From Fonticula-like sp. SCN 57-25 (taxonomy: Eukaryota), in contig MEDX01000002.1 in the NCBI GenBank assembly GCA_001724245.1, positions 1 through 64,000 on the forward strand: 64,000 nucleotides of DNA, written 5' to 3'. Of this stretch, positions 4,592 through 64,000 are shown piece by piece. Both the position numbers and the translations under genes were made by a program. The stretch's first letter is position 1. The number at the start of each line of letters is the position of its first letter. Under the pieces are notes generated by a model, which saw nothing but the letters and a program-made list of their open reading frames with translations, did no database searches and had not been told where the DNA came from.

Positions 4592-5424
4592 ATGTCTGAC
4601 GACGAGTCGAGCCCCCCGCCGGGCAAGGAGGGTGGCGGGTACGCGCGTGCTCTTTGCTTATTCGCTTGATTAACCCTTTTTTCTTTCATTTTGATTCATT
4701 CAATGTTTAGTCGCAAGAAGCGCGCCAACCACAATGAGCTGGAGCGCAAGCGGCGGCATCACCAGAAAAACACCATGAATGACTTGCGGGATGCCGTTCC
4801 GATCCTTCAAATGGAAAAGCCGTCGACGGTTTCTATTTTGAGCAAGGGTGCGCCAATATTTATTTTATTAAACGTTGCCTAATCTCTTTGCGGTGCAGCC
4901 AAGGAGTATATACAGATGCTCGAGCAGCGGGCGTACGAGCAGGAGGAGGAGCTCGGCGGACTCAGGAAGCGGCTCAAGCTGCCGCCGCTCTCGGGAAAGC
5001 TCATGGCGCCGCCGGTGTCGGGCAACGCAGACCTGACCAGGAAAAAGGTCGAGTCGGTACGTTATGATGACTGCGTTACTTGGTTCTCACCTCGGCATCC
5101 TTCAGGTGCGCCGGGAAAATGATGAGCTGCGCAATAAAATCATGGACGTCGAGCGTGCGATCGCGTCGGTGCACAAGGGCGGCGCACGGCCAGCGGTGGT
5201 ACGCGCGCACACTTTCTCGCTGTTCAGTCTGTCTCACACCCGGCGATCTTTTGCAGAGTGCCGTGCCGGCCTTTGGATCCGTGGACCCCAATTTGGTTCT
5301 CGCGGCGCACCAGGTACGTTTCAATTGCCGCGCACCGCATTGCTCACGCGCATGGTAGGCCGCTGTGGCGGAAGAAGAGGACGATGTCGACGATGACGAG
5401 GAGGAGATCATTGACGACATCTGA
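4592..5424 (+). CDS. bHLH-leucine zipper transcription factor, Myc/Max/Mad-like, 5 introns
   Basis: Spliced product has KKRANHNELERKRR...LRDAVP...KPSTVSILSKAKEYIQML; the H-E-R basic residues are those of class B (CACGTG) binders. Confidence 0.88.
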
Positions 5425-9220: not shown

Positions 9221-11754
9221 ATGCAAGGCGGCGGCGGATGGGGCCAAGGCGGGCCGCATCGCCCGCAGGGAGGGCAGCAATATGGTAATTTTAACGCGGT
9301 TCCGCCGCCTTCAGCGCCCGCGCGGCCGGCTTACCCTGCCGGTTATGCGGCGCCACAGCCGGGCACGCCGGGCTACGAGGCCTACATGCAGTACGTTTGG
9401 ACGCAGTACTACCAGCAGCAGGCTGCAAATGCTGCCGCGGCATCGGCGATGGGCACAACGACAACTTCTCCTGCGGCGAATGTTTACCGCGGGTCGGCAA
9501 TGCCGTCGGCGATGCCTGCTGCGTACGGCGCCGGCTACAACACCGTGCCGCCGCCCAATCGACCTGCCGCGTACGGCGCCGGTGCGACGCTGTCAGCGCG
9601 CCCAGTGTCGTATGCCGCTGCGACGCGCGGCCCTGTTCAGCTGACCCCCGTGGCGAGCGCGACGGGCGCGGCGGCAACGCAGCGTAAAACGCCGTGGGGC
9701 ACGTGGACTGTGGAGAGCACGGCGGTCAAGCCCGCTGTGCCGACCGCCGACCCCGGTGCCTTTCCGCCTGCACTGCTGTACGCAAACTATTATGAAGAAA
9801 AGTGTCATTTTTGAATAAGAATTGTGAAAGTGAAATGCTTATGATAATGTATAATATGATATTGGTCATGTGAATGTTGACGTTGTCAGTATTGTTGTCT
9901 GTCTTTGTGTGTGTGTATGGTATTGAGTGTGAGTATAAGTACATGATACTTGTTCATATTTGTGCTCATGATACTCACTATTTCTCTTCTTTTCTTCACT
10001 TTTAACACGTCTTTAAGTGAATATACGCGTCGTGCGATGCAACTCGCAAAAACCGACGCCGAACGCAAGCAGGCCGAGACGCTCATTTCGCAGACCATTG
10101 TCGAGGCGACACGTGAGGGTGTTTTGCGGACACGTGATTGGTCAAAGTACCCTCTGCCATCGTGCGCCCATTGGTCCATTTGTTATTAGGGCTTAGACTG
10201 ACACCACGTGGTCGTGTAGGTTGACGTCGCCTGAAAAGATCGCCTTCAAGCTGCCCACCAAAAACATGTACGTTTTATGATGTCATTGTTTTATGTTATT
10301 GTCCATTGGCATGATTGTCTATTGATATGACTGTTGTCTATTAACATGGCTATTTGAGCTATTGATATGACTATTGATATGACTATTGACATGATATTGA
10401 CATGAGTGTTCCATGACATGATATTGACATGAGTGTTCCATGACATGGCTATTGATATGAGTGTTCTATGACATGACTGTTGTCTATTGATATGACTATT
10501 GATATGACTATTGACATGACTGTCCTATGACATGACTATTGACAACGTTCTATAACATGACATCTATTGACATGAGTGTTCTATATTGACACATGACTGT
10601 CCTATATTCCTTCATTTGCTGACTCATCCTTTCCTTTCCTTTTCAGTGCCAAAAAACGCCCCACCTTTGGCGACGACATGACCTCTACCAGCACTTCTTC
10701 CCCTTCCACTTCCCGCCTCGTCCCAGTCACCGCCGCCACCGCCGCCCCCCTAAAAGACACCCCCCAAAACGGCGGGAAAAACAAGGACAAAAACCGCTCC
10801 AAAAAGTCGGTTTTAAAATCACTCATTTCCGACGCGTCCCTTTCCGGCGATCGCTCCGAGCAGCGCGAAAAACGACTGCGCCGCTTCGAATCAAGCTCGA
10901 GTGGGAGTCACGTGACTACAACACGTGACGATGACGTTGATGATTGGGCTGATACTGGGCTAGTAGGCACGTGCACGCGCCTTGAAAAGCGCTATTTCCG
11001 CCTAACTGCCGCGCCAAATCCCGCTGATGTACGTCCACTAACTGTCCTAAAAGAGACACTTTTACTATTAGAACAGAAATGGCGCACAGAAAAAGACTAT
11101 TTTTACATATGCGATCAGTTCAAATCGCTTCGCCAAGATCTCTCCGTTCAGCATATTCGAAATGACTTTACCGCGCTTGTCTATGAGTCACATGCACGAA
11201 TTGCGCTTGAAAAAGGCGATATTGGCGAGTTTAATCAGTGCCAGACACAGCTACGTGAGCTCTATTTACAAGGAATTCCAGGTAGCCAATCAGAATTCCT
11301 TGCCTATCGCATTCTCTACTTTTTAATGTCAAGATCTGCTTCAGACTTGAACAATGCACTCGCCATATTGACCCATATTGAAAGATGTCAGCCTGAAGTG
11401 CAGCATGCACTAAAAGTGAGACACGCAAGTGTGACTGGCAATTACATAAGGTGGTTTCAATTATACTCGTCTGCACCGCATATGGGAAAGTATCTTATGG
11501 GTCACTTTGCGCAGCGTGAAAGGCTTGTTGCTATGCGTGCAATTTGCAAGTCATTTAGGCCGTCAATTGAAGTAGAAACGGTTAGGGCATGGCTTGGGTT
11601 TGAAAGGGAAAAAGTGGAAGAGTTTTTGGGTGAAATTGGGGTGACGTATGTGGAGAAAAACAGGAAAGTGATTGATACAAAGGCGTCGATGCAGGCGGTG
11701 GTGAATGCGGCGCATAGTGCGAATGCGAGGGTGGATATCAAGGGGCAGTTGTAA
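9221..11754 (+). CDS. LENG8: SAC3/GANP-domain protein, LENG8/Thp3-like, 3 introns
   Basis: VGTCTRLEKRYFRLTAAPNPADVRP, YICDQFKSLRQDL, VYESHARIALEKGDIGEFNQCQTQL. Confidence 0.92.
10300..10600. repeat. Intronic imperfect repeat island (CTATTGAYATGA)
   Basis: Visible degenerate tandem words. Confidence 0.9.
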
Positions 11755-18102: not shown

Positions 18103-20962
18103 TTACTTTGCCTTTTTCTCTCTCCTTTCAAACAGTCTCATGATCCTCCCCTGCAACTGCAGATCGAGCATCGATGTCGCCGCCATCAGCACGACAATGA
18201 CAAGCTGACCCGCCACGAGCATGGCTAGCATGCCGGCAGTGGCGCGCTTGTCGGCAGTGCCTTCGGGAAGTTTGCAGGCGCGGCGGATCTGGGCGACGCG
18301 CATCGCATCATCAACAAGCGACACAATTGCACTAGAGGAAGGGAAAAGTAAGTAAAAAATGAGAAGGGATTAAAGAAACAAAATGTACACAAAAAGAGGT
18401 AAAAAGTGCATAAAAAGAGGTAAAAAGTGTTTAAAATGACACAAAAAGTGTCAACAATGAACTACACAAAAAGTACCAAAAAGTACCAAAATGCACCAAA
18501 AAGTACCAAAATGACATCAAAATGCACCAAAATGACACATTTTCCTTCATTTTCCCACATTTTCCATTCATTTTCAACATAATTTCGTACTTTGCGTCAT
18601 GTTGTGCCAATCTCGAATAGAACATTGCGTGAGACATTTCGCGCCGCCCCACCGACTCCAACGCCCTTTCCATCTTTTCACTCATCACGTGCATTCTTTT
18701 CACAATGGCCACGTGGACATCCCCACTCACCCCAAACGGCCTAATTAATTCCACTGAATGTTCAACTGCCCTTTTCTGACCCTCAAAATAGGCAAAAACG
18801 GCATTTCTAACAATGGAATCGACCAAAAAAGCGGCAATTTCATATGAAAAATGGTTCGAAAAAGGGCCAAAAGGCGAATGTCCAGTACCAAAAACATAGT
18901 CTGGCATTGGCGCATTATGAAGCGCACTCCATGTTAAATAGGGCGCGCCAACACCCCATAGTGATTCAAACAATGCTGCAGTCACTGCACGTGACATGCT
19001 TGATGACGTGGCAGATAATGGTTGGCCATCGCATGCAAACTGGGCATAGTACGCTGACTGTGCGCCGCCGTCCAGTAATAGTACAATGTCATCAAATACA
19101 GCATAATGATCACGTGACGTGTCGGAAGTGTCGAATAAGGCACGTGACGTCGTGTTGAATATGACGATTGGGACTGTTTGGACGGCGGAATTAATACTCG
19201 TTAATGATCGCACAAGATCAAGGCCAAGCACAAGTGAACGAAGTAAGGATGCGTCCACGTGGTGAGCGACACCGTCTTGAGTGACTGTTGACTACATGGT
19301 CACGTGAGTATTATGATCACGTGATGATGATCGTACGTAAGTGGCGGCTGCGAGTTGTGCGAGGAGAGATTTGTTATCGGTGGGAGGGACGGCGTGGTTG
19401 GTGACGAGAAGTTTGCGGCCGGGGTAGTGAAGTGGAGCAAGCTAGAAGAAGGGTAAGGAAAGGGGAAGAAGAAGGGGGTTAGAAGAAGAGTAATATTATA
19501 TATGGCAAGTGGACATGGTCAACATGGTCAAGTAGACATGGTCAAGTAGACATGGTGAACATGGTCAAGTGAACATGGTCATCAATGATACCACATGGTT
19601 ATCAATGACATGAACATGGTCATCAGTGATACCAATATGGTCATCAGTGATGTCAATATGGTCATCAGTGATATGGTCAAGTGAACATGGGCATGGTAGA
19701 CACATCAATGGTGATACCAGTATGGCATGATCATGAACATCAATGACAAGTGATCATGACAGATGAACACAATGAACACAAGTAAACATCGATAACCTCA
19801 TATGACAATAATAACAATATAGCAAACTTCAAATGACGTACCTTTCTCTGAAGTGCCGATGCCATATTCGGATCACGACGAGCATTCTCACTACACAGTG
19901 TTAACACCCATATACACTTTCACCCAACGCACTCTTCCGATGCAATGAATAGCCTGACGTCCATATCAGCATCTCTCACCTTGCCATCAAATATGGGCAA
20001 TTTTCCCACCGACGGCACAATGGTATGCTCGACAATCGCCCCCACAAATGACGCGAGCGCCGTCTCAAACGCCTCGAGCAGCACGCCATTCTGCCTTGTA
20101 AACTCTGCCAGGCTGGGCATGCTGTGGTCAGCGACGGCGCCCAGAAAGACTGTCCCGACGGTGCGGTTCGGCGCGGCGCCTTTTTCGACGAGCTGCGCGC
20201 CGAGATCGACCCACGTGAGGCGGTCCTGCGTGACGAGGAGCGACGAGCCGCAGGTGTCGGAGGGGGACATGCGGTAGGTGTAGGGGCCGCGCGTGCCGGC
20301 GGGGAGGTTGAGCAGGTAGATGGCGCTGAAGAGGCCAACGCGGTGGTGCTCGCCGCGGACGGCGGCGTCGAGCGAGATGATGTCGCGGATGGGGCCGGTG
20401 CCGGAGGCGGCGAGGAGGGATGCGTAGAGGGTGGGGGGGGCATGCGAGACGGAAATCGAATAGTCATACTCAATTGAAACAGCCTAAGGAAACGAATATG
20501 TTAGTTAAATACAAAAATACTTGTTTTTACTCTTTTTCGTACGTCATCGTAAAAGACGCTGGGGGATGAGGGGAGCTGGAGGCGCTCGAGGCGACGGCGA
20601 AACTGGCCGGCATCGACGCGGATGCCGCCGGCGCCGTCGCCGTTGAAGCCGACGAGAACGACGCTCACGAATTCGGTGAGGCGTTTCGAGTTGATGCGGT
20701 CGAGAAGAGTGGAAATGTCGGCGTTGCCGAGAGAGGCAAAGATCGGGGATGTGTCAGAGAGCCACCGAAAGGTGTCGACATTGGCCAAGGGATGTTTCTC
20801 CATCGTCGTGCCTGCGCAAATTTTAGCAAACAAAAACATCAAAATTGGATTTTTAGTACCAAAGGCGTCGGCGTCGCGCGTCGCGCCCGCCGCGGCGAGG
20901 CACACGTTCGCCGCGGCCGCGAGCAGCAGCATCAGCGCCGCCCACCGACCTGCCATCGCCAT
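18103..20962 (-). CDS. Uncharacterised type I membrane protein with signal peptide, C-terminal TM and KKxx tail, about 6 introns
   Basis: N-terminal hydrophobic signal; conserved-looking block [33 protein letters not shown] followed by REKKAK*. Confidence 0.7.
19500..19800. repeat. Intronic island (ACATGGTCA)
   Basis: Visible degenerate tandem words. Confidence 0.88.
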
Positions 20963-28319: not shown

Positions 28320-31054
28320 CTAGAGCTGGTCATCTCCGATGGCGAACACGGTCACATCGTCATCATCGCTATGACGCACATTCAAGATTAGCCCCCACAA
28401 AAAACAGATCAAGCAACGCGTACTCGTCCGCCGCGACCGACGTGTACTTGCTCTTCTTCCCTCCCTTCGCGCCCGCCCTCTTTGTCGCCCTCGACCGTCT
28501 CCGATTCCGAATCCACATGAATCCGATTCCCGCCAACGCGACCGCGGCAAACATCGACACGACGATCACCGTCTGCATCGCCAGCCACTGATCACCCAGC
28601 TCTTCCACCGGCGCCGTCGGCAGTCCAACGTACTCGTACGGCGACATGAGCGCGACGAACGCGCCGCGCTGCGCAAAGTCGGCGGTCGCGCCGATCCCCG
28701 GCAGGTCGAGGCTGGCGCCCTCGAGCGAGCCGCCCACGTGCACGTACGACTGGAAGGTGGACATGGAAAAGACGGCGGCGTCGGCGGCGCCTTCAAAGAG
28801 GGCGTTGAGGTAGAGCGGCTCGCCAGAGTCCTGGAAGGAGACGAGGAAGGCTTTGGGGGCAGCAGAGGGGTCAAAGAAGGACAGCGAACTAGGAAGGGGT
28901 TAGAATGGAAAGAAGTAGAAAGGGAAAGTGGCAAAGAGAGGCAAAAACATGCCAATAACATGCAAAAAGTATAGAAAAATATACATGTACAACATACACA
29001 TGTTCATCAACATGTTCATCATCATACATACATGTACATCAACATACACATGTACATCAACATACATACATACATGTTCATCATCATACCATGTACAACA
29101 TACATACATGTACATCAACATACATGAACATACATGTACACCATACTTGCCTTCATCATCATACCATGTACACCATACCATGTACACCATACCTATCATC
29201 ATACACATATACATTTCCATACACCATACACCACACAACATACATAACATATCTCCTACTAAATCCCTTATATTCCACGCACCCAGCCGATGTCTTTTCC
29301 GTTGCCGGCCCCGTAATCATCACATTCGTCCCATTCGACGCAATAAACAGCGGGTGGCCCTCATCAACCACCCCCACTCCAGCCACCGCGCTCCCATAAA
29401 CAAGCGACCCATCAGCCGACAGAGCAACGACTAGCACACATGGCGGCAAAGTACAAGAAAAGGCCGCCGTCGGAGATGAAGCAGTGCCAGAAAAGGCTCC
29501 GACGGCGACAACTGTTTCAGAGCCAGAAGACGAAACTAGAGAGGAAAGCTCGTGGGATTGGGCCACGTGGTCAAGGGAAATGTCAAAATGCCACGTGACA
29601 GTGGCGGTGAGGGCCACGTGGTCGAGGATGAGTTTGAGGGTGGTTTGTTTGGGGGTGCCTTTTAGGGTGGCAAAGCCGGTGGCGTAGAAGGTGTCGGGGG
29701 AAGATGAAGGTCTAATAGGGGGTTAATATAGAAGAAAGAGAGTATTTATAGGCATATCAATAGAGACATATCAATAAAGAGTGTCATTCCATAAAGACAT
29801 ATCAATAGAGCATGTGATTGTAAATCACATCAATAGATGTGTCATCCATAGAGACATCAGTAAAGTAAATCATCCATAGAGGAAATTTCATCAATAGAAA
29901 TTGCTATTCCATTTCAATAAAAGTGACTTTTTAACACACTAAAAGTGATAATTTTCCATTAAAAGTGTCCTTTTTCACCCTTAAAAGTGACTTTTCCCTC
30001 GATAAAAATGTCCCTTTTCTGACTCTTCCCAATCCCAATTCGTACTCTGCCGCGGTCAAAAATAGGTCCGTTGCGTTGAAATGATCGGGAAAGACGAGCT
30101 CGTAAAGGACAAATGCCTTGCCGCTGTCCGTTGAGGGGCGAAGAACGCCGACGAGCGAGCCGAAACCGTTCGAGGAGGCGGAGCTGCCGCCGACGCTGTA
30201 CGCGCGGTCAAGGTAGGGGCCAACAAGGACGATCGAGGCGTCGGCGGTCACAATCATGCTCGTGTGAGGGCTGAGAAGGAAATGGGTGAGAAAAGCGGAA
30301 AAAATGGTGTGAAAAATGGGGTGAAAAGAGGCGAAAAGTGTGCAAAAAGTCATACAAAGTGTCAGGAAAGTGACACAAAAGAGCATAAAAAGTGTCAAAA
30401 TGAGCAAAAAAGCAACAAAATTGCCTTTACACATAACAAATAAACTCAAGAAAGCGCCACAAAACATGCTACATAGTATAAACGAAACACATTCGCCGCC
30501 GCCGCTTTCCAACGTACTTCATGGCCTGTGCGGCGGTGTCCCACCCGCCGACGATCATGGCGAGCGCCTGCGACTTTCCGTCGAGCCCGACCGCCGCGAC
30601 AAAGTAAAAGACCGTGTCGGTCGTGTTGAGCTCCGCCGGCACGGTCGGGGTGAGCTTTGTGGTGGCGCCGGTCGTGTCGGTCATCAGGAGGTCGCCCGAT
30701 TTCCACGAGCCGACCGCCCACGCCCAGAGGCGCTCGCGATCGTAGCGAATGTCAAAGACATCGACGCCGGTGCCGCTCAGGCGCGCCGACCAGGTTGCCT
30801 GGCCGTCGCGGTAGGAGGAGAGCTCGGCGTATTCGCCGGCATCGCTCACGCGCGCGGCGGCAATCGTGTCATCGGCCTGCAGGATGGCCGTGGCCGTTAT
30901 GCGCGATCCAGTACCAACGGCCGAGATGTGATAGAAAACTGAAAGAAACCGGTTAGCGACATTGGTGCAAGTGGGTATTCAGCGCACTTTCGTCGGCGAG
31001 CACGAGGCCGCACGACAGCAGCAGCAAAAGCGCAACCGGCAGTGCGGCGCGCAT
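28320..31054 (-). CDS. Uncharacterised single-pass surface protein with beta-strand-rich ectodomain, about 5 introns
   Basis: Signal peptide MRAALPVALLLLLSCGLVLA; TM VIVVSMFAAVALAGIGFMWI; basic stop-transfer; acidic tail ending SDDDDVTVFAIGDDQL*. Confidence 0.7.
28960..29255. repeat. Intronic island (CATACATGTACA)
   Basis: Visible degenerate tandem words. Confidence 0.88.
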
Positions 31055-31719: not shown

Positions 31720-32789
31720 CATTTCATGTCAAAACCCCTCCACCAGCATATCCCGAATGGGTCGCGGAAAAGCGCAAACCTGGATCGGTAAGACAGCCGG
31801 ATATGCCGAGGGCGACCGACTTGAACCTTAGCAGCAACGCACCAGCAAAGATAGCTGTGTCGCAGTTAAAAGACACGCTGCTAGGTCTGATGAAAAAGTA
31901 TCCAGAGGTCGTTTTAATTCCTATTGGATCAGGCCGTTGCGCTCGCCGCCCACGGAGGAGACGCCCGTCCCAGACACGATGACGCAGGCGGTGGTGGCTG
32001 CATTGCAGCAACTAGGGTTCCGCGGAAACCGCCCGAACCGGCAGGCGCCCAAGTCTCGCGGTCCACGCCGTTTCAACGGCACCTGCTGGGCATGTGGAAA
32101 ACCAGGCCACCGCGAGAGCGAGTGCCGCCAGCAGGGCTCCGCCAGCAAGGCGCATGTAACCCAATATAGCAAGACCAGCTATTATTTGCCCGTTGCCAAC
32201 TCAGAACAAGTCCAGACGATCAGCAAAGTGCTGAGCGTCGTCCAGTCGTCGACGACCTCACGAGCCCCGTGGCTACAAGCCACCGTCCAGTTCGCAAACA
32301 CTCCAGCGCGGGGATTGACCGCATTAGTAGATACGGGCGCCGTCATCTCGTGTGTCTCCGCCGAGTTTGCAGATGCCGCAGGTTGGCAACTGCGAGAACC
32401 CATTCGAGTCCTTGGCAAAGTGAAGCTGTCGCTACGAGTTCCGCGTCGAAAGCCATGGCAGCATTCTTTTGTGGTAGTGGACGGCCTCATATGCAACGTC
32501 CTCGTCGGCTTTTTTTTTAATAGCGAAGACGGGCGCTGTCGTCGACCTCAAGCGCGCCGTGTTTCGTTTCGGCCGTACGACCGTGCCTTTCACTAAATGC
32601 AACCGGCGAGAGTCGACGACGGAGGCAAAGGCGGCAGCCATCACGGCACCGCCCTGTCACACTATGACGACTCTAGAGTACGACCATCCCCTTTTCGGTG
32701 AGGACTGGATGCGCCGGACTATAAAGTTTTTCCGCGCCGAGGGGGCTATTTGCGACAAATGTGCCGGCATCGTAACTATCACAAACTAA
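31720..32789 (+). mobile_element. Degenerate LTR retrotransposon fragment, Ty3/gypsy-like: gag zinc knuckle, aspartic protease, possible integrase Zn remnant
   Basis: CWACGKPGHRESEC (CCHC), ALVDTGAVISCVS (retropepsin), frameshift near 32510; no RT and no LTR pair seen. Confidence 0.85.
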
Positions 32790-35001: not shown

Positions 35002-37264
35002 ATGTCGCTCAAGCGCGCGCGCGATGACGACTCGTCGAGCGGCCGCGATGCACCGCCGAGTGCATCTCAGGCGTCGTCGGACCCGCGGCCCGTGTGCTAT
35101 TATGACCCCGGATGCACGCGGCAAAACTTGATGCATTTCGCGGATTTCCGGCATCCCGCGCTCGAAGCGCAACAGGCGCGCGAACTCGGGCTTGCCGATC
35201 ATGTTGACGCGCGCCCTTCGGCATCGAATGAGCCGATAGACGTTGACGCGCTTCCCTCAAGCAAGCCTACGGCGAGCGCGAGCAGCACACCAAACGCCCG
35301 AACTGTCTTTGTGTTTCGCCTCAATCGCGTCCGGCTTGTGCCTGCTTCAGCCAACGCCGATACATGGTCGATCCAGGTTCGCCGAGCGGCATCCCCTTGT
35401 ATCATTCTCTCTTTACTGACCAATATGCCTTTCCAGGATTTGATACACGGCGACATTGACGAAGCGATTCTGAGCAACTTTGAAGTCGATCTCGCCTGGC
35501 TCTACGATCGCGTCCCCCTTCTCCGCCGCATCCGCAAAGTAACTCTCCTTCACGGCCTCGGCCAGGACGGCGCCGCCCACCTCGAGCGCACGCGCGCCCC
35601 TAACATGACACTCTACGCCCCTCAGCCTCTCCCCTACGGCACGCACCACTCCAAGGTGATCCTTCTCGTGTACGCCGCCGGCATCCGCGTCGTCGTCTGC
35701 ACGGCCAACTTTGTAGAGTCCGACTGGGAATTAAAGACAGAAGCAATTTGGGCGCAGGATTTCCCGCGCAAAACTGACATGAACGCCGCCGAATCGTCTT
35801 TTGAACGCGACCTCGTGGCCTATTTTCGCGCCACGCGCTCTTTTGACACGTCAATTCTGCGTCGATTCGACTATAGTCGCGCCACCGCCGAGCTGGTACA
35901 AACTAGACATTACATATAATTTTGCCACGTGGATGCTAAAGTAGACTTTTCTTTAGGTCGGGTCGACGCCAGGTACCCACGTGGCCGAGTATAAGAACAT
36001 GTGGGGCCACGCCAAGCTTCGTCAGCTGCTCGCGCGGGAAACAGTCCCGGCCGAATTTTCCCGCGGTACGTCTCTTTTTCGCCCCTTTTTAATACCAGAA
36101 ATTGTCTCACGCATAACAGCGCCCGTTGTGTGTCAATTTTCGTCTCTCGGAGCACTGACCGAAAAGTGGATCGACGAGATGCTCGCATCGTTCACGGCCG
36201 GCGCAGGATCACTTCCATCAAGGTACGAAATGTCTCTGATTGGCTGATTCTGACAGCCCTGTCACAGCCCTGTACGCATGCAACTTGTCTTTCCGACCGT
36301 GGAAAGTGTCCGTTGTTCAACTGAAGGGTATTTGGGTGGCTGCTCTATTCCGGTGCAGAGCAAGAATCACAAGCCATTCATGCGCGCATTCAGGGGGGTA
36401 CGTGGCCACGTGGACGACTGTGTCACGTGGATGATATGATTGTGTAGATGATATATTTGTCTTGTTTATGTAGATATATTCTCTATCTATTCATATCTAT
36501 CTCGTCCATGTAGATATCTATGTCTTTTGACCATATTTGTGTGATATACACATGATAGATATACATCCCTCTATCCACGTGGACATATGTAGATATATTT
36601 CTCTATCATGTTTTCTCTTCTCTTACCACGTGGCCACTGACTTCCTTATTAGGCCGACATGTATCATCACTGGGACGGCGGCGACGGCACTATTGGCGGC
36701 GCCCAACACCGCGCCCGCAGTTTACCCCATATCAAAACATATACACGCTTCTCCCCTACCCACCCCAACCACGTGGCCTACGCCCTTGTAACATCAAGTA
36801 ATCTCAGCAAGGCCGCGTGGGGCGAACTTCAAAAGAATAATTCACAGCTCTCTATTCGATCATATGAGTTGGGCGTGCTTATTCATCCAAAGAGATTTGC
36901 TGACAATATTGGCGCGCTTTCTTTTTCATTGACACGTGACCGGCCGCTTTTTCCCACGTGGTTGGAAGGGTTAACTGCCAATGACATCGAAGAAGGCATG
37001 TTTACTGCTGCTGATATGGGTCAAGGTACAATATGTGGTCACGTGAGAAAAGGTAATACTGACCACGTGGATATAGGTACATCATCATCATCATCGTCGT
37101 CATCTGGCCACGTGGGTAAGGTGAGGTTGATTGCGCCGTTTCCTTATTCGCTGCCGCCGAGGCCGTATTTGGCGGGAGATGTGCCGTGGGCAGTTGATGC
37201 GATATATGAAAGGGCGGATGCGAGGGGGAAAAAATGGCCACAAGCATTGCAGGAAATGATGTGA
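35002..37264 (+). CDS. TDP1: Tyrosyl-DNA phosphodiesterase 1 with N-terminal PBZ zinc finger, 5 introns
   Basis: Two HKN motifs (GTHHSK..TAN; PHIKTY..SSNLSKAAWG), IRSYELGV; CYYDPGCTRQNLMHFADFRH PBZ. Confidence 0.95.
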
Positions 37265-37436
37265 ACGTGAATAATTATATTGTATAATGAAGTAGATAAT
37301 AAAGATATGTGGTATGTATTGTACAACTACTATGGATATTAACACGGATCTCGGGGACCATTCAATGGAAAAGGATATTACTCAAAGGAAAAGTGTCTTT
37401 CTGGCACAAACAACAAGACATATTGTACATTATAAC

Positions 37437-38071
37437 TTAGGAGAGGCCGACGGCCAAGCCGACAATGAGGCTCACGATGATGGCAAAGGGAAGCCACGTG
37501 CGCAAAAAGCCCGACACACTACAGAAAGTCAGTCAACAACACACACTTTCCTTTTCGTACCCAGTGTAGCTGCCCATGAAGAACATGCCGAATGCGAGAA
37601 TCACCATATTCCACCGCCCAAAGTTGTTGTAGCGCATCGCATTAAGGCAGTGAGCCACGTGGTTGTGGCAGTTGTCCCAGCACAGGATGTGCTGCGGCAT
37701 GTGTCAGCACTGATGCCTGCCCCGCATCAAAATAGACGCACCATGCGCTTGTTGTAGACATCCTTGCCCTGCATCACGGCAGAGTCCCACTCTTCGCCGC
37801 GAATCTTGCTTGTGTCGAGCTGCCAGTAGCGAGCCGGCGGGCCAAGCATCATGTCGCCGACGCCGACATGATACGGGCCCTGAAAGTCGGTGATCACGCC
37901 GGTCGACGTCGCGATGCCAATATGGCCAATAAACGGAAGCAGCCACCTAAACAATAAAATAATCAATTTCACTCTTTGTTTTTCTCGTGCGCACGTTATT
38001 AAGGGAAGCGGAGTCCACACGAGCGCGTAGCGGAAGCGCGGGTCGCCCGCCATCCGGCCCTGCTCGATCAT
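37437..38071 (-). CDS. TMEM222: TMEM222/RTE1-family membrane protein, 3 introns
   Basis: [44 protein letters not shown]. Confidence 0.92.
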
Positions 38072-38129
38072 GGCGGTCAACAGATGCAAACTGCAAACTG
38101 ACTCGCATCGCAAACTGCAAACTGGCGTC
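38072..38129. promoter_or_regulatory. 58-bp bidirectional promoter between TMEM222 and PDF, with 4 x GCAAACT
   Basis: GCAAACT at 38086, 38093, 38110 and 38117 between divergent ATGs. Confidence 0.6.
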
Positions 38130-57238: not shown

Positions 57239-57293
57239 GTGTGACAGGGCTGTATCCACGTGGCAGATGTGTGACAGGGCTGTATCCACGTGG
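57239..57293. repeat. Direct repeat, 2 x GTGTGACAGGGCTGTATCCACGTGG, period 30
   Basis: Exact copies at 57239-57263 and 57269-57293, upstream of ABCF2. Confidence 0.9.
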
Positions 57294-62032: not shown

Positions 62033-63923
62033 ATGGCCGGTCTGAACGCCTATTTTGCTGATCGCTTCGGCTCGACCGATGACTTTGATGAAGAGGATTC
62101 CGATGCCGCCTCTGACGAGTATGACGAGCCGCATGCCGATGAAGGCGCCGCCTCTGGCCTCGCCGACAAGCCGCTCTCCTCTTCCCGCCCCTCCATGACG
62201 ATCCTCGACGGCCCCCAGCACGATCTCGAGGCCGTCAGCGACGAGGAAGAGATGGATTCCTTTGACGAGTCCTTTAACGATCTCGCCGACATCCCCGTCT
62301 CGCCCGTCCCCATTTCATCCTCGATGCTCAACGACACTGCTCCGACGCCCGTTGCCGTCAAGGACACTCCCCGCAAGCCGCGCGTCGTCGGCCGCGCCTC
62401 GCCTCTCCGCCAATCCCGCGTCGCCGAGCTGAGCGGCTCCCCGATGCCCGCATCCCCCAAGGATGCCCTCGAGTCGTCGTCATCCTCGGCATCATCCCCG
62501 TCATCTCCTTCCTCTGACTTTGCCTCTTCGAACCTGAAGCGCAGCAGCTCCTCCGCGAGCCGCGTGAGCGCGCTGTCGCGCAGCGGCACGACCGCGCGCC
62601 GCGCCGCCGAAGCGACGATCAACCGCATCAAGCACAAGCTCAAGATGCCCGCCGGCGAAAAAGAGTCGCTTTATGTGCCGTTTGTGACGGCGGCGTCGGG
62701 GTCGACGGAGGTGCTGGGGGCGCTGCCGGCGAACACGCTCGAGGCGTTTCACGCGTGGTCGGCCAACAGGAAGCTGCAGCCGTCCAAGCAGACGTACGAG
62801 AGGGGATGAATGGGAATGGGAAAGTGTGGGAAAAAGTGTTGTTTGGTGACATTTTGTGTCATTTTACATCACTTTACATCATTTTATGTCACTTTTTGTG
62901 TCATTTTAGATCACTTTTTGGTGTCATAGTGTGTCATGTTGATTTTCAATTGTGTGTTCATGTGAACAATATTGGTAATTTTGTGTTACTTTTGTGTTAC
63001 TTTTGATATCATTTTATATCACTTTTGATGTCATTTTGTGTCACTTTTGTATCACTTTACTTTATTTTTGTATCATTTTATGTCATTTTGCCTCCTTTTT
63101 TCGTACTTTTTCCCTCCTTTTCTCCCCACTTACTAATTCTCTCTTTCTCTTCAGTTTCTTTGATACTGTTGGTGCGATGAGCAGCAATTTGTTTGAGATT
63201 TGCTTTTACGCCAATGGCGAAACATCCGCGCCTTATCTTCTCGACATTTGCTTTGGCACACTTGTTGTGCGTTCGTGGGAAACTGGCGCTGTTCTGAGAG
63301 AGTTTCCCTATTCAATCATCAAGAGGTGCGAAAGAAGAATAAGAATATGTTGGGATGAATGTAGAGCGTATATTGAATGGTTATTGTGGTTATTGTGGTT
63401 GTTATTATGTATGACTATCATATGTGACTCATGTATGGTATCATATGTGAGCACTATGGTATCATATGTGTCACTATTACTTATCATATGTGATCATTAT
63501 GGTATTATATGTGACTCAGTTATGGTATCATATATGATACTTTTACTTCATATATGGTCATTTATGGTATCATATGTGTCACTTTTCCGTATCATATGTG
63601 ATACTTTTACCTATGATTTTGACACTTTTACCTATCATTGTGACACTTTTCCTTTTCATATCTGATCATCATTATGTCACTTTTCCTATTCATTTTCCCT
63701 TTTCTATATTTACTTACGCTATTCCCTTAGTCTTTACCATTCTGTTGCTGACAAGAATGGAAATCGCCATCTTGTTTTCGAATTCGTCCGAAATGCTGAC
63801 ACACTCTCTGAGACTGGCAAGGTCCACGTGGCCCGCCATGCACTTGTCACGGAAGATCGCGAGACGCTCTATAGTGAGATTAAGAGTGCCATGCTGGCGC
63901 AGACAAAGAGGGCGAGCACGTGA
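62033..63923 (+). CDS. Uncharacterised protein: acidic Ser-rich disordered N-terminus, possible PH/PTB-like C-terminal domain, 2 long introns
   Basis: Exons about 62033-62792, 63155-63326 and 63731-63923 join in frame through GTRCG..AG; C-terminal beta strands plus a final helix. Confidence 0.6.
63410..63680. repeat. Intronic island (TATCATATGTG)
   Basis: Visible degenerate tandem words. Confidence 0.88.
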
Positions 63924-64000
63924 TTATGGTCACGTGATTGTGGTCATGTGATTGGGTCATGTGATTGGGTATAGATTTCCCTTTTGCGGGCAATAAGAAG

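Follow-up and report, generated by a model that had tools for sequence, protein, structure and literature searches.

Recognition of the class B E-box CACGTG by bHLH-ZIP proteins follows a basic-residue rule (His/Glu/Arg), and the specificity of CREB3-like bZIP proteins includes CACGTG as well. In yeast, CDEI supplies one T-flanked site per point centromere. Cyanobacteria have a highly iterated palindrome, HIP1, that is spread across the whole genome and associated with a methylase. One in vitro study ranks CCACGTGG highest among the 8-mers bound by Myc-Max and reports that Myc-Max and Max bind TCACGTGA four- to five-fold less well than GCACGTGC (PMC4242493). A 5' T distinguishes Pho4 from Cbf1 in an account that sets Max/Pho4-type against USF/Cbf1-type binding (PMC8431614, in part), and yeast Cbf1 is described, in the excerpt used here, as only a weak polymerase roadblock (PMC5052057). 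Factor-type motifs may also overlap codons; in such duons or exonic enhancers, both synonymous and non-synonymous changes affect the motif, according to the portion of the source drawn on here (PMC13216554). It is disputed whether the binding of factors influences which codons and amino acids are used, since the evidence is for the most part statistical, with small effects. A literature search covering few subscription papers and no supplements returned no gene-body CACGTG arrays in microbial eukaryotes. Here, we describe a eukaryotic region in which gene bodies are enriched in CACGTG, a word of the promoter type that is sharply defined and symmetric between the strands; the enrichment is limited to the neighbourhood of expanded AT-rich introns.

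The window is the 64,000-nt stretch C2:1-64000 of a 9.5-Mb eukaryotic assembly in 749 contigs. The DNA, of an uncultured microbial eukaryote, recurs in sequencing runs from bioreactors, wastewater, and aquatic samples, and no RNA run is among those listed. Wider counts were made on an 861-kb sample of 23 mostly large contigs, the window included, with exons and introns called by HMM gene models built for the present analysis. For block statistics, 10 kb of contig C53 were removed as prokaryote-like, leaving 851 kb. This contig (L034, L095), which bears a C5 methylase match, is densely packed with ORFs that lack introns and are arranged as in operons, and its 10 kb contain no CACGTG; it probably entered the bin from a prokaryote or a phage. 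Elsewhere, contig C41 (L120) carries the only MT-A70 match of the assembly, which we presume to be of the AMT6/7 type, a subunit of an ApT adenine methylase complex. The ABCF2 protein of the window has best matches of 62-71% identity to animal and Fonticula proteins, which makes an opisthokont likely. An 18S rRNA search gave no match, which we do not read as absence. The features discussed below are collected in Table 1.

Table 1 Features of the window that bear on the CACGTG clusters
Feature	Position	Strand	Remarks
Max-like bHLH gene, candidate motif reader	4592..5424	+	in window
Six sites in SAC3/GANP gene	10110..10973		either side of expanded intron
Second window cluster, 8 sites	18686..19323	minus-strand gene	AT-shifted stretch; exon limits uncertain; no Pfam match
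Three sites in one exon	29564..29620		exon flanked by two expanded introns
TDP1 gene	35002..37264	+	PF06087, PF10283; from splice signals and homology
Two more CCACGTGG, absent from the earlier list	35926..35983		35926 in intron 2; 35978 in exon 3, His-Val
Intron 5 of TDP1	36398..36652	+	255 nt; 37% GC; sites 36407, 36424, 36576, 36627
Exonic CCACGTGG, His-Val	36770..36775		alignable core, before conserved LxTSxNLS motif
Exonic site spanning Thr-Arg-Asp	36933..36938		Thr-Pro-Glu in two closest homologues
Exonic CCACGTGG spanning Pro-Thr-Trp	36955..36960		variable loop
Probable in-frame, stop-free intron	37026..37076	+	51 nt; holds 37040 (TCACGTGA) and 37064 (CCACGTGG)
Exonic CCACGTGG, His-Val	37109..37114		downstream of poly-Ser microsatellite
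AT-rich island	37191..37470		TDP1 3' end and convergent intergenic space

The TDP1 gene is predicted to consist of exons 35002-35376, 35437-35895, 35957-36065, 36120-36222, 36268-36397, 36653-37025, and 37077-37264. Its product, in which both His-x-Lys catalytic motifs are found, has 578 residues with 37026-37076 spliced out and 595 residues unspliced. All ten CACGTG copies reported in the earlier note are present, at 36407, 36424, 36576, 36627, 36770, 36933, 36955, 37040, 37064, and 37109, and seven of them take the form CCACGTGG. The same note placed them mostly inside the coding exon, which does not hold, as intron 5 contains four of them and a further, probable in-frame intron of 51 nt another two. 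By the gene model, only four are surely exonic and six at most, and the majority is probably intronic. Specifically, the peptides GHVRK (37040) and DHVD (37064), which had been read as protein, are probably not protein, because the splice score of 37026-37076 stands at the 34th percentile among 1114 predicted introns (404 kb of exon contain 24 decoys with an equally good score) and the two closest TDP1 homologues have a gap at these residues. Among the 1114 predicted short introns of the 851-kb sample, 136 keep the reading frame and contain no stop codon, and some loops in proteins read directly from ORFs of this genome may therefore be introns. Intron 5, for which the median of predicted short introns (52 nt) gives a scale, is G-rich in its first half, C-rich in its second half, and full of degenerate short repeats.

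The cluster is neither a chance event nor an artefact. In 10,000 dinucleotide shuffles of 36400-37120 (721 nt) the mean was 0.24 sites and the maximum 3, and even under a Poisson model that takes its rate from the contig itself, at least ten sites within 710 nt have a probability of 2e-8, by which a chance origin is rejected. Contigs of run X3, which may belong to the same campaign, show 0 differences over 36552-36820 and 36822-37285, so we also reject an assembly error; a metagenome scan for the TDP1 locus recovered a single, identical locus. Only one other ten-site cluster, at C2:69477-70169 in the AASDH gene, occurs in the 861-kb sample.

The protein code accounts for these sites only in part. 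The earlier note had proposed a DNA-level signal beyond codon usage, and had named loss of the enrichment under a shuffle as grounds for refutation; synonymous shuffling of TDP1 bears the proposal out, with P=1e-4 for the unspliced reading (six sites) and P=2.5e-4 for the spliced one (four exonic sites, shuffle mean 0.97). Codon contexts permitting CACGTG in spliced TDP1 are used at 0 of 6 places before 35900 and 5 of 8 after it. The ABCF2 coding sequence does lack CACGTG, as had been claimed, but it is a weak control, because only 5 of its codon contexts permit the word and about 0 sites are expected. On a larger scale, the domain (C2 plus C4:1-15000, with boundaries first set after the motif was seen) uses 63 of 211 coding opportunities, against 20.9 expected from class codon usage, and still 45 of 184, against 18.9, once the five hand-picked training exons are left out; outside the domain, 170 of 1587 are used, against 165.8. 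The enrichment is present in all three reading frames, and coding sites in the offset frame are in roughly tenfold excess (13 of 126, expected 1.2). The AASDH cluster likewise covers all three frames, and six of its sites lie within Pfam-matched residues (P=1.5e-4). In the AT-shifted exons of the domain His-Val pairs are raised (19, expected 8.0) and Val-His pairs are not (7, expected 8.0), so that CACGTG bends amino-acid choice. CACGTG thus lies in gene bodies more often than the protein code accounts for, and these genes may carry a second, protein-binding signal. The excess is strong but restricted to certain places, and a built-in control is provided by coding sequence at a distance from expanded introns, where there is none.

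The TDP1 cluster is one case of a regional feature and not peculiar to TDP1. The window holds 70 CACGTG sites, compared with 20.3 in shuffles, and the assembly 5333 (0.56/kb), compared with 3233 for the reversed control. Pairs of CCACGTGG at most 30 nt apart number 56 in the genome and 3 in the control, and they are spread over at least 37 contigs, on which the 50 listed pairs lie. Density reaches 1.14/kb on C2, and the remainder of the sample has 310 sites in 778 kb. As the genome mean exceeds the density of the sample without C2, about a fifth of the genome is suggested to be C2-like; this fraction is an arithmetic estimate rather than a count, since small cluster-rich contigs and random small contigs lie outside the sample. 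Distance to AT-rich islands had been proposed as a check, and CACGTG does track them, with coding observed/expected ratios of 4.3 within 300 nt and 0.9 at 700-2000 nt. When 10-kb blocks of the 851-kb sample are classed by intronic AT islands alone, the ratio is 1.01, 0.90, 1.48, and 3.03 for 0, 1, 2, and 3 or more islands; blocks with at least three islands hold 66 coding sites (expected 21.8) and blocks with none 114 (expected 112.8). The three such island-rich blocks outside C2 hold 14 sites (expected 4.3), and the rank correlation of islands with sites without C2, on few blocks, is 0.08 (p 0.5). Contig C14 has islands at 0.1 site/kb, and of two clusters of 4-5 sites one has no island within about 1.8 kb and the other none nearby. 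Three telomere-repeat contigs show no subtelomeric excess (5 sites in 14.7 kb).

The domain has many introns that are long, AT-rich (37-38% GC), and filled with locus-specific short words; islands and sites occupy the middle and 3' parts of genes. At one exon-intron edge (63917-63975) tandem units of 13-14 nt grade from CACGTG to CATGTG, and inspection by eye pointed to the relic of a retroelement at 31830-32600, recognised by a CCHC knuckle together with a motif like that of aspartic proteases. A MutS_V search returned, on C32 and C18, only genes that we take to be MSH2-like and MSH4-like. MSH3 and MSH6 were not seen in this search, which may reflect introns or gaps, and could bear on the repeat-filled introns.

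Such introns raise the possibility that no protein is involved, and that local copying by slippage or template switching fills introns with short words and makes CACGTG on the way. The degenerate, locus-specific intron repeats, some with CACGTG (63917-63970), agree with this, as does the slight flank sharing between neighbouring non-coding sites (7.2 of 20 positions, 6.5 expected; p 0.017). Neighbouring coding sites, however, do not resemble each other in their flanks (p 0.18; none of 36 pairs agrees at 12 or more of 20 positions), sites stand at alignable protein positions, and a relative 4% diverged, which covers five of the TDP1 sites with 30 differences in total, aligns over 36174-36925 without a gap. 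No hexamer ranks above CACGTG in the coding sequence of the domain, and eight of its nine one-mismatch neighbours are not raised (CACTTG is, 1.85-fold). CACGTG and TGGCCA, which overlaps it, are the only two of the 64 palindromic hexamers to be conspicuous in AT-shifted exons, and palindromic pairing is not in excess past flank position 1. Copying is thus very unlikely as a general account and already largely refuted for the exonic sites, for which local duplication is not supported. Quasi-palindrome template switching and general palindrome formation are not supported either, with few palindromes raised and arms not extended beyond the core. The flanks prefer G, C, C, and A at positions +1 to +4 (+1 G in 54-59% of domain sites) and are symmetric about the sense strand, by which an RNA-level motif is rejected. 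The sites show no helical phasing at 10-11 nt.

A second reading departs from the promoters. In ordinary genes CCACGTGG and TCACGTGA both peak at -100 to 0 relative to the ATG, and the strongest promoter word of the genome sample is TGCAAACTG (61 occurrences of one 8-mer, 2.6 expected), found in tandem in the bidirectional promoter at 38084-38124. The ABCF2 promoter (57239-57293) contains a direct repeat with a spacing of 30 nt, of which each copy ends in CCACGTGG; one more site and a CCAAT box accompany it. The gene-body sites might accordingly be bound and selected as intragenic promoters or enhancers, with the AT-rich introns open and bidirectionally transcribed, driving internal or antisense RNAs or boosting the host gene. 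The word is identical to the promoter element, and TTTCCCGC, which we assume to be E2F-like, is raised in domain exons together with CAATCAGA (16, expected 4.1, and 6, expected 0.8, respectively). Within islands, G prevails towards the left and C towards the right in plus genes, minus genes, and intergenic space alike, and exonic enhancers are known, as is a similar skew at fungal gene ends and starts in the part of the source consulted (PMC13216554; PMC3315797). Yet neither TGCAAACTG nor TGACGTCA is enriched in the exons of the domain, and TCACGTGA stays mostly intergenic (27 of 41; only 4 of 248 coding CACGTG sites), unlike CCACGTGG, which enters gene bodies. The intron skew also matches ordinary donor-G, acceptor-pyrimidine anatomy, and the sites extend over 0.7-1.3 kb of housekeeping genes. 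We therefore regard this reading as doubtful.

The CpG within the word invites another explanation, raised in the earlier note, that CACGTG escapes or results from methyl-CpG decay. CACGTG accounts for four of the seven CpGs of intron 5, and CpG observed/expected falls to 0.75 in long domain introns; GpC falls alongside it, however (0.86), coding CpG is not depleted (1.07-1.26, with NCG codons common), and CATGTG/CACATG stand at 1.0. The only C5-methylase match (PF00145) of the assembly, which may be incomplete, sits on the prokaryote-like contig. The idea is not supported by these figures, and we find it hardly credible.

Proteins that could read the word are encoded in the genome. The assembly yields 17 HLH matches, with Max-like and USF/Cbf1-like members included, which confirms that class B bHLH-ZIP genes of both kinds are present, and a cognate bHLH-ZIP with the His/Glu/Arg basic residues is among what is encoded. 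The Max-like bHLH-ZIP has Max as its best solved match (E about 2e-10), and the Cbf1/USF-like homologue was found at E 2e-13. For a small microbial genome, 17 in 9.5 Mb seems to us a large number; we take several of the loci (L022-L033) to be Max-like and several USF/TFE/Cbf1-like. Nine bZIP matches are also present, and a bZIP could be an alternative binder of CACGTG.

The Cbf1/USF-like gene gives some substance to the view that the domain is a pericentromeric region with dispersed Cbf1-type centromere elements. Low GC and long introns, which typify non-recombining regions in the accessible part of one source (PMC3318434), are in keeping with it, and they also recall gene-level recombination gradients as outlined in another (PMC11414407, in part). 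The sites, on the other hand, are mostly C-flanked, the contig is gene-dense without a gradient, and close pairs occur on at least 37 contigs. Moreover, the bias towards C-ending codons is stronger, not weaker, in the 5' parts of domain genes (0.46 in the first 150 codons, 0.37 elsewhere; p 7e-7). A pericentromere is a distant prospect.

More weight attaches to the view that the sites are bound without benefit. A bound factor would shield them from mutation or meiotic breaks, alleles would persist or spread by biased repair, and sites would pile up where the mutation or break rate is high. This predicts sharp specificity and flank preference equally well. GC3 falls in the domain from about 0.8 to 0.65-0.68 past 1.5 kb from the ATG, with no fall elsewhere, the mirror polarity of the skew may be what resected break ends would leave, and SPO11-type and (by our labelling) MSH4-like genes are present. 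Against it, the roughly tenfold offset-frame excess is large for passive shielding, and conversion usually raises GC, yet GC is low here. A literature search found no account of break occlusion by bound factors and nothing useful on resection skew. We consider this reading unlikely; were it true, the region would clearly exemplify how binding sites can build up although they bring no advantage.

The reading we prefer is that the CACGTG copies are class B bHLH-ZIP sites, weakly selected, through which nucleosomes are organised where a gene body far from its promoter adjoins expanded AT-rich introns; we give it a probability of about 0.5. It requires a binding protein, as do the intragenic promoter or enhancer and the shielding or biased-repair readings. 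The organism's own class B bHLH-ZIP proteins would bind the sites in vivo, and a Max-type dimer would fit the C-flanked majority best. The bound protein would then sit between nucleosomes and set their phase beside the nucleosome-poor intron, and the phased nucleosomes may keep the gene body orderly and transcribable. For an excess of about 3- to 10-fold, selection per site on the scale of codon bias would be enough.

The spacing of the sites bears on the chromatin role. After sites at most 45 nt apart were merged, the pooled set of 127 pairs, which are not independent of one another, favours a period of 160 nt (z 3.8, corrected p 0.002). The domain alone gives z 2.4 (corrected p 0.084) for this period, and eleven further cluster loci, chosen for close pairs, give z 2.9 (p 0.043). 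Exon-plus-intron units likewise peak at 120-200 nt, three control words show no spacing peak, and exonic sites have no preferred distance to exon edges (p 0.69). Ordinary sequence has a different CACGTG period, of 185 nt (p 0.008), and the genome autocorrelation revealed no consistent nucleosome period. The recurrence at about 160 nt is suggestive and fits a chromatin role. A stronger version, which we consider less likely than not, is that a nucleosome-spaced lattice of Max-type E-boxes runs through exons and introns of promoter-distal gene bodies at the cost of amino-acid changes, and that in perhaps a fifth of the genome of a unicellular opisthokont it orders chromatin where repeats have expanded the introns. 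If so, the Myc/Max network would have a structural, non-promoter role outside animals.

With yeast Cbf1 at CDEI, the comparison drawn in the earlier note, the region shares a class B E-box adjoining AT-rich DNA and an encoded homologue. The likeness is weak, because the flanks are C/G and not of the Cbf1-linked T/A type; moreover, the sites are multiple, mostly C-flanked, and intragenic, and the AT islands are introns of 37-38% GC. The USF sites of the chicken HS4 insulator are class B bHLH-ZIP sites that act on chromatin state and not as a promoter, as set out in the passages used (PMC3295818), and the sites described here perhaps work like such elements, by analogy. HS4 is a single vertebrate boundary element, unlike the multiple gene-body sites of this region. 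A Pre-SET search of the assembly for heterochromatin machinery gave no match, which is not taken as absence. HIP1 resembles the present word as a palindrome over-represented in all reading frames, but here the excess is local, most coding sequence does not show it, and the search for C5 methylases turned up none of eukaryotic type. With the Myc/Max E-box the region shares a core with C/G flanks and disfavoured T/A, and both Max-type and USF/Cbf1-type proteins are encoded; known sites are promoter-centred, whereas here they form gene-body arrays with predicted binding, which would point to a Max-type chromatin role outside promoters and outside animals. Duons and exonic enhancers have in common with it a factor-type motif in coding sequence beyond codon expectation. 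They differ in that here, in a eukaryote that is unicellular, one and the same word recurs in housekeeping genes, in exons as well as introns and with as many as ten copies in 700 nt, and does so only in those regions where introns are expanded.
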